This document shows, piece after piece, positions 21,434 to 22,369 of a DNA stretch of 64,000 bases (its first letter is position 1; each line of letters begins with the position of its first letter). The stretch is from the NCBI GenBank assembly GCA_964106645.2, contig OZ067042.1, one strand, 5' to 3'. Source of the DNA: Podarcis pityusensis. Taxonomy: Eukaryota. The translations under genes and the position numbers were made by a program. The notes beneath the pieces are model-generated. The model did not search any database and was not told the origin of the DNA. It saw nothing but the letters and a program-made list of their open reading frames with translations.

Positions 21434-22028
21434 CTCAACCCCCAAACATGTGTGGATCTTCGGCCACAGCATAGTGCATTGGGCGGCCATCCATGCCACC
21501 ACTGGTTCAGGCGGAGAACATCTGGGTCTGCAGCCAAAGATCTCCATTTCCTGGTTCGGACAACGTGGAATGTGGTGGGATGCCCTGCTCCCTCGGTTGC
21601 ATCACGAACTTGCGTTCCGCCACCCGCCAAACGCGGTTGTGCTCCACCTCGGCGAAAATGACTTGGTCGTGCGTAAAAGCATAATTCTGATCAAAACAGC
21701 GATCGCAGACCTGGAAAGCATACACACCACTCACCCCAGTATCACGATTTTCTGGTCCGAACTTCTGCCACGCTTCCCTTGGCGGGGCAACATCAAATCC
21801 ACTAGACTTAATTACACTGTGGAAAAAATCAATAGGACAGTGCGCTCTGCAACCACTCGCATGGGAGGTCGGGTCGTGAAACACCCCAACATTAAAGTTT
21901 ACATGCAGGAGCTATTTCGGTCCGATGGCGTGCACCTATCGGACCTTGGTAACGAGCATTGACTGAGCGACATCAGGCATGGCCTGATTGACTGGTTGGA
22001 GGATGGCAAAAGGGCTTTTCAGATGTAG
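21433..22028 (+). pseudogene. SGNH/GDSL-family hydrolase ORF of the YR element, with one in-frame stop
   Basis: Block I WIFGHS, block II GQRG, block III HLGENDL, block V DGVHLS. TGA at 21960-21962 is probably a mutated TGG, because the frame continues LSDIRHGLIDWLEDGKRAFQM to TAG at 22026-22028. Confidence 0.85.
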
Positions 22029-22360
22029 GTAGTCTTGGCGGCGAGACCGCAATCTTTGCGGTCTCGGGTGGCGGTATCAGGCCTTGGGCGGAATCCTTTA
22101 GTCCATCTTCCTCTTTGCGGCGGCGATACCAGGGTTCCCCGTTGAAGGGGTTTCTGAAGGGAGGCTTTGACCGTACGCCGAAAGGTCTCCCCTGCGGCGG
22201 CGGCGTAACGGGGGCGGCTATCTCTGCTTGAACATATGTTCTCCAGAGCCGGCCCATCCCCCCCCCACACTGGATAACCCTGATGCTCCCTAGGTCCCCG
22301 GCTGGGGACTGGGGAGGGAGAACGCCCAATGCCTGAGCCAAGGTCTACCCACATTTGAAA
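22017..22360 (+). other. Predicted multibranch RNA structure in the element's 3' UTR
   Basis: Outer stem 22017-22039/22337-22360, hairpin 22042-22066, second stem 22077-22090/22323-22336, and further internal hairpins; paired by eye. Confidence 0.7.
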
Positions 22361-22363
22361 TTT

Positions 22364-22369
22364 AATAAA
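22364..22369 (+). terminator. Putative polyadenylation signal of the YR element
   Basis: AATAAA ~95 nt before the element's end, directly after the outer stem. Confidence 0.6.

Follow-up and report, generated by a model that had tools for sequence, protein, structure and literature searches.

The locus raises the question of what a large folded RNA does at the end of the hydrolase gene of a retrotransposon, and why it should lie across the border of one of the element's repeats. It is found in a 64,000-nt stretch of Podarcis pityusensis DNA (contig OZ067042.1, assembly GCA_964106645.2), referred to below as the window. A first-pass annotation had described a multibranch fold that fills the 3' UTR of an element and closes directly before AAUAAA, and had proposed a cis-acting role in packaging, priming, 3'-end formation or catalysis. 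Our analysis partly supports this interpretation: a cis-acting, undescribed RNA structure is supported, catalysis found no support, 3'-end formation is a live rival, and tRNA priming at the start of repeat B is unlikely. What had been overlooked is that the edge of repeat B runs through the fold and that there is a second, alternative closure at the other copy of that repeat, B2. This two-state domain and its tie to the repeat border appear undescribed, the element itself being of a known kind.

The host element is a Ngaro-type tyrosine-recombinase retrotransposon, present in the window as a deleted copy; it was assigned by gene order, domains and split repeats. Copies elsewhere in the genome have the layout A1-ORFs-B1-A2-C-B2, with split direct repeats A (268 nt) and B (about 410 nt) and a unique spacer C of 183 nt between A2 and B2. 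The same layout was found in five of six loci of other clades, the sixth being without A1. The window copy reads A-(deletion)-genes-B, with no A2-C-B2 after B1, and comprises the following features:

19450–19714, + strand: repeat A1, first 266 of 268 nt, opening with the AAT common to the end of B
19716–19761, + strand: short foreign piece at the deletion joint, present elsewhere in the genome too
19763–20514, + strand: 3' remnant of the RT/RNase H frame, with no methyltransferase domain detected after it
20394–21419, + strand: tyrosine recombinase frame, 341 aa from stop to stop
21420–22028, + strand: SGNH/GDSL hydrolase frame, with a stop at 21960 in the window copy and, in sister copies, 202 aa up to a TAG at 22026–22028
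22069–22466, + strand: repeat B (here B1)
22426–22466, + strand: end of B, complementary to 19485–19525 in A, closing a stem around the B|A recombination junction

The reverse transcriptase and recombinase were best recognized in the sister copy L035 (RVT_1, E 2e-11; Phage_integrase, E 3e-6), the window matches being weaker, and the hydrolase matched Lipase_GDSL_2 (E 5e-7); a domain search of the 577-aa RT frame returned no methyltransferase. The 46-nt piece at 19716–19761, which resembles the head of a tRNA-derived SINE, sits exactly at the joint of A and the RT remnant and was perhaps captured in a template switch. Ngaro-like elements of the order DIRS have been described with split direct repeats in the order A1-ORFs-B1-A2-B2 and an SGNH hydrolase (PMC9210276). 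The present element shares the gene order RT/RH, YR, SGNH, the split direct repeats and the absence of a detected methyltransferase; it departs from that published description, as far as the latter sets these features out, in the unique spacer between A2 and B2, in the RNA structure and in the folding difference between B1 and B2 (PMC9210276).

The complementarity between A and B spans 41 nt at 71%. Around a small hairpin, the end of B and the sequence just inside A form 6–10 predicted pairs in 5/5 clades, and matching changes in this stem were seen, as judged by eye, at the B1|A2 junctions of L031, L045, L069, L073, L078 and L084. The AAT recombination site could thus be held in a stem-loop and offered to the recombinase as a single-strand substrate.

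The fold itself is real: it is more stable than shuffled sequence and its helices co-vary. The pairing proposed between 22017–22039 and 22337–22360 (P1) was recovered as 22 pairs with one bulged base and one A-C mismatch at 22027, including two G-U pairs (22022:22355 and 22033:22343). The perfect hairpin P2 stood with 11/11 pairs and the stem P3 with 13/14, forming a three-way junction with P1 and P2. The enclosed hairpins lie where they had been placed, except that 22159–22191 is shortened by a 10-nt deletion private to the window copy (1/20 aligned copies). As had been noted, the fold closes just before the polyadenylation hexamer, and the likely natural hydrolase stop lies in the P1 5' arm, 10/16 closest sister matches having a stop-free 202-aa frame that would end there. 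The region is more than an ordinary 3' UTR, since 22069–22466 is terminal repeat B. The suggested shuffling control gave a minimum free energy of -172 kcal/mol (z -4.69), with 0/100 shuffles equally stable, and no Rfam family matched over the fold, in agreement with its not having been recognized. The parts are listed below, and their position relative to repeat B proved essential:

22017–22039, + strand: P1 5' arm, outside repeat B and so only before B1, overlapping the last hydrolase codons and the stop
22042–22066, + strand: P2 hairpin, not part of repeat B; stem conserved across families, loop and length variable
22067–22076, + strand: single-stranded joint J2/3 with the motif UGGCGG (31/35 sequences), containing the 5' boundary of repeat B (22069)
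22077–22090, + strand: P3 5' arm
22130–22150, + strand: P5 5' arm (22130–22136, partner 22276–22282) and hairpin P6 with a GUUAAA-type loop; private change at 22144
22159–22248, + strand: inner hairpins 22159–22191 (with the private deletion) and 22222–22248; look-alikes in other families, judged by eye
22286–22320, + strand: hairpin 5' of the P3 3' arm
22323–22360, + strand: P3 3' arm (22323–22336) and P1 3' arm (22337–22360)
22364–22390, + strand: AATAAA (22364–22369), near-invariant GTTGTGGC (22370–22377) and CA (22389–22390)

The hairpin at 22286–22320 is absent from some families and is therefore dispensable. The CA, a predicted cleavage site, lies 20–22 nt 3' of the hexamer in 9/10 loci.

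To assess conservation, relatives were collected through a hydrolase search in which 150 of 1323 candidates were scored and 70 loci examined; 64 of these had AATAAA in range and fell into 18 clusters. Thirty-five sequences were aligned after redundant close relatives, a single truncated copy and four sequences of doubtful end point had been set aside; L079 and L107, which carry deletions inside helices, were also excluded from the arm-swap, G-U/A-C and tree-null tests. The ten clades or families are 46–82% identical over the region. Compensatory changes among diverged copies, which the first-pass annotation had named as one check, were found in P1, P3 and P5 across the ten clades. When cognate arms were compared with arms swapped between clades (10 clades, 33 sequences), pairing was stronger for the cognate arms in P1 (-27.5 vs -17.2 kcal/mol), P3 (-19.9 vs -15.5) and P5 (-10.2 vs -8.0), with the control at -7.1 vs -7.1. 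Against a tree-simulated null in which columns evolve independently, z was -7.7 for P1, -3.2 for P3 and -4.0 for P5 (0/150 each), the two controls giving -1.6 and -1.1. Over the alignment 87.7% of cells were paired, 19/41 pairs showed double changes, and 0/500 shuffles reached the score, in a shuffle that ignores kinship. A strict same-branch test of pair-keeping double changes was not significant (11.4 vs 8.3, p 0.11), being limited by few independent events and by the misregistration of P1. The claim that G-U pairs favor a sense-strand RNA gained support across families (G-U 40 vs A-C 10, symmetric scoring, clade-averaged); the reverse strand also folds better than its own shuffles (z -2.2 to -7.9).

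RNAalifold, run on the 550-column alignment, recovered P2, P3 and P6 and paired the junction GGC with GUGGCC after AAUAAA in place of P1. This pairing was not adopted because the columns concerned are near-invariant and P1 is out of register in a sequence-only alignment; as a predicted structure it is a formal alternative. Beyond the ten clades, a hairpin followed by NN-UGGCGG was found after the hydrolase stop in 2/12 distant metagenome loci (35–41% protein identity for the best matches of the set), namely L117 and L124, whose contigs end before the region of the P1 3' partner. The other 10/12 had no clear junction motif or too short a sequence, and the viral contigs searched held no relatives.

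The position of the fold on the element is as constant as its shape. In 14/14 loci with both B1 and B2, from five clades, B starts inside, or one base 5' of, the UGGCGG of J2/3, with clade-to-clade shifts of at most 5 nt. Since the repeat includes neither P2 nor the 5' arm of P1, the full fold is only possible at B1. In front of B2 stands the end of spacer C, and two other pairings are predicted here: a short spacer arm binds the inner part of the P1 3' arm (the cognate combination ranking 4 of 120, five clades), and the spacer-C motif RUCACAACU pairs with AGUUGUGGC directly 3' of AAUAAA (-9 to -15 kcal/mol, 5/5), its partner being exact in 30/31. In the window, the segment at 22370–22377 corresponds to the partner of the spacer-C end at B2, and the pairing of that end would constitute an alternative closure across AAUAAA, over AAGUUGUGGC. 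The RUCACAACU helix shows no co-variation because it is invariant. It was the clear winner in only 5/10 loci in longer-context predictions, and when the whole 3' region was folded, arm-swapped forms without a local P1 appeared in 3/5 loci. Invasion of B1 by the spacer-C motif in the growing RNA was considered and rejected, its predicted value being 0.00–0.15 in 5/5.

Spacer C (L031 7936–8118 and homologues) has a C-rich motif at its start in all clades seen. Its end carries a similar multi-stem fold, with a UUGCUAU-type arm opposite GUAGCAA and a GGUAGG/CCUACC-type stem, recognized by eye in 4/5 clades, and the spacer is a candidate initiation site. Self-priming by the RNA end at the C motif was rejected, since the motif keeps a G-U that primer copying would erase.

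What these two closures might be for is suggested by the forms in which the element survives. Counting exact junctions in the window family gave 328 for C|B, 20 for pre-B1|B and 5 for B|A; in other clades, with looser patterns, C|B occurred 3073 times vs 486 for pre-B1|B. Whole A-C-B units with clean ends, which we call minis, make up 36/44 C|B loci. They share subfamily variants with gene-bearing copies and are accordingly by-products of each parent; an independent mini lineage was looked for and not seen. The C|B junction has a single length in 100/100 listed copies of 393, and so bears no scar of a join. Imprecise ligation was rejected on this fixed length among the listed copies, and the junction variants of other clades track different families. 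The minis share the build of SIRE, the non-autonomous short version of the Trypanosoma cruzi element VIPER, which consists of A2, about 30 unique bases and B2 and whose origin is left open in the source (PMC6681497). They differ from SIRE in superfamily and in their spacer, which is 170–185 nt long and folded; no structure is mentioned for SIRE in the portion of its description that bears on this (PMC6681497). Two minis, L162 and L163, are without most of B, position 37–47 being joined to 352–383.

A second record is left by truncated copies. When 26 loci of the window family were mapped against a natural long copy, 13 proved to join A (positions 216–266) to an internal point, with 0–4 bases of microhomology and in two cases a short insert, and none to join through C. 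In other clades, 11/70 consecutive matches are truncated likewise within 1.5 kb, again ending in A, in a count where some A joins were possibly missed owing to an incomplete A library for those clades. Within 1.5 kb upstream of B there are 20 break points. The five nearest to B, at 13, 14, 15, 27 and 32 nt, fall in P2 or at the base of P1; the sixth follows at 103. This cluster has P 0.0002 under a uniform and 0.027 under an exponential null, which become 0.002 and 0.08 when one of two near-identical junctions is dropped. Six further copies (L271, L290, L249, L243, L230 and L223) end 17–95 nt upstream of B with unrelated sequence, not A, in front; these were left out of the stall-point count. 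A search for A-tailed genomic copies, in which simple repeats may be skipped, matched none. The search for expression listed no RNA record containing the sequence. Raw RNA reads from a related organism (14–227 aligned per run) cover B on both strands and include the C|B joint; the sequence directly 5' of B1 is uncovered and neither starts nor ends are seen, and the reads are uninformative on ends.

B1 and B2 were 99–100% identical in 4/6 loci checked. The identity runs over the 300 nt 5' of the poly(A) signal to a sharp edge, in families that themselves differ by half, from which we infer that one repeat is copied from the other with a crossover near the edge. Because this edge coincides with the B1-only junction, and truncations pile up just past it, the junction is favored as a site of reverse transcriptase stalling and strand transfer. 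Rescue at the end of A, and never in C, further suggests that the first-made DNA ends at A|C.

Our preferred reading, to which we give a probability of about 45%, is that the three-way junction at B1 is the place where the reverse transcriptase stalls and from which the strand is transferred to the identical B2. The minus strand would have its 5' end near the A2|C border, and A2 and then B1 would be copied leftwards until the enzyme, in most cases, stalled at the B1-only junction. The DNA end, complementary to the start of B, would then re-anneal to B2 and copy C, and closing after the copying of C would yield an A-C-B circle, i.e., a mini. Read-through of the junction and the genes, with closing on A, would give A-ORFs-B, the form seen in the window. 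If read-through came after a jump, the result would be a full element whose B2 had just been made from B1, and this would explain the identity of the repeats up to the sharp edge. Stalls just past the edge would leave an end without B homology, rescued by microhomology to the end of A, and the recombinase would insert the circle at the AAT of the B|A junction. One rule would thereby produce minis, one-junction copies and full copies.

Several observations weigh against stalling and transfer at B1. Any strong hairpin makes reverse transcriptase pause, and stalling may therefore be incidental to the fold and not its function. In L040 (G000:C6:88129000-88138500), the two B repeats disagree at variants that each has in common with a different subfamily, which is the pattern to be expected had a mini landed behind a one-junction copy. 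The scarless C|B, the arm-swapped 3'-region folds, the same-branch result, the exponential P of the reduced cluster and the folding of the reverse strand also count against it. Moreover, minis have two other possible sources: a two-junction circle resolved by the recombinase, or synthesis beginning at the 3' end of the RNA.

Two known systems invite comparison. In retroviruses, the minus strand is transferred between the R repeats after the reverse transcriptase runs off the RNA 5' end, a tRNA serving as primer. Here the donor repeat is internal, so that the stop would have to come from a structure, and there is no evident tRNA site. A tRNA primer site would be a long fixed complement of a tRNA 3' end, starting with UGG at the repeat border. 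The junction motif comprises only 6–7 bases common to families, and some families are without it at C|B2, which makes such a site at the start of B unlikely. Like R, repeat B occurs at two places on the RNA, folds according to its neighbors, holds AAUAAA and probably serves strand transfer (for the HIV-1 poly(A) hairpin, see PMC12789967). The cDNA of DIRS-1 is single-stranded and its primer is stated as unknown (PMC7192593). As described there, its internal complementary region (ICR), complementary to the outer ends of inverted repeats and acting on cDNA, resembles the domain as we read it in that base pairing by an internal sequence is required for restoring the element's ends from a shorter RNA (PMC7192593). 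Unlike the ICR, P1 joins an arm inside the element to the middle of a direct repeat, and its G-U bias points to the sense strand; the repeats here are direct, and A and B are complementary only over the 41 nt mentioned above.

A wider proposal, tentative and on balance somewhat doubtful, is that the strong stop of Ngaro elements is a folded RNA junction and not an RNA end. A two-state domain with different neighbors at B1 and B2 would set where the reverse transcriptase stops, jumps and restarts, and thus which product results, a mini, a one-junction copy or a full element; the junction motif may date back to the origin of the Ngaro group. If true, split-direct-repeat retrotransposons would have their first cis-acting replication signal, and the proposal would explain the split repeats, the lasting identity of B1 and B2 and the excess of short A-B forms over their parents. 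Our literature search, mostly at title and abstract level, found no account of RNA structure in Ngaro repeats. The proposal comes with exact testable coordinates: a junction at the repeat border, two alternative closures and a stall-point record in old copies.

The main rival function for the same two closures, which we regard as unlikely though well worth weighing, is a switch between two identical AAUAAA-CA-GU signals, in which P1 would hide the upstream side at B1, so that transcription reads through, and spacer-C pairing would free the site at B2; at B1 a local hairpin would be left over the cleavage site. Both context-specific helices do end at the hexamer, P1 on its 5' side and the C-end motif on its 3' side, and the predicted CA site is more open at B2 than at B1 in 9/10 loci, as are the upstream 20 nt in 8/10. 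According to the relevant part of PMC12789967, the first signal is repressed in retroviruses that carry two for poly(A), and in HIV-1 a stem-loop contributes to this. However, for the hexamer itself greater openness at B2 is predicted in only 5/10 loci, and the window family runs the opposite way (0.95 open at B1, 0.67–0.73 at B2). The share of copies keeping A2-C-B2 does not track the predicted masking (4/5 in clade P, 0/8 in clades N and Q), and a switch leaves unexplained why B starts in J2/3, 300 nt upstream. Poly(A) choice and stalling at B1 are compatible and can operate together.

The fold may alternatively be a platform for the element's own Gag or RT, for packaging or for the initiation of reverse transcription, with the B core (P3, P5 and P6) as the putative handle and with P1, which overlaps the stop codon, forming only on RNA not being translated at the time. 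We think this quite unlikely. Both repeats retain the core, a GUUAAA-type loop (a loose motif) occurs in 35/35 sequences, B alone folds at z -2.0 to -6.3, and a similar fold is seen in spacer C. The hydrolase stop is inside P1 in most families but outside it in L061, L062 and L064, and a platform by itself explains neither the boundary nor the break points.

That the RNA is cut in J2/3, by itself or by an enzyme, leaving a 5' end at the start of B1 at which the RT would run off, is improbable. It would account for a sharp boundary in a conserved single-stranded joint of a three-way junction. Yet its position differs between clades by as much as 5 nt, and truncations continue past it; Rfam ribozyme families gave no match over the fold at E up to 10, nor in four longer loci at E up to 1, and CUGANGA, which together with GAAA we take to be the hammerhead core motif, occurs in only 2/35 sequences. 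Least probable of all is that a GC-rich repeat folds by chance or descent with no function, as the non-significant same-branch test would allow, since partner arms 300 nt apart changed together while the interior fell to about 50% identity and the controls stayed flat.

A few minor observations concern the rest of the window and the genes. A scan for bacterial promoters and terminators was empty, and is not relevant here. An open frame of 480 aa at 62381–63823 had no Pfam match, and a long imperfect hairpin at 23270–23390 drew several weak matches to microRNA models, all well under threshold. In each of two RNA runs from a related organism, 13 sense reads join the start of the recombinase frame to an acceptor before the hydrolase (window about 20638 to 21432; L031 6623), which may reflect one expressed copy; the hydrolase exon is thus reachable by splicing.
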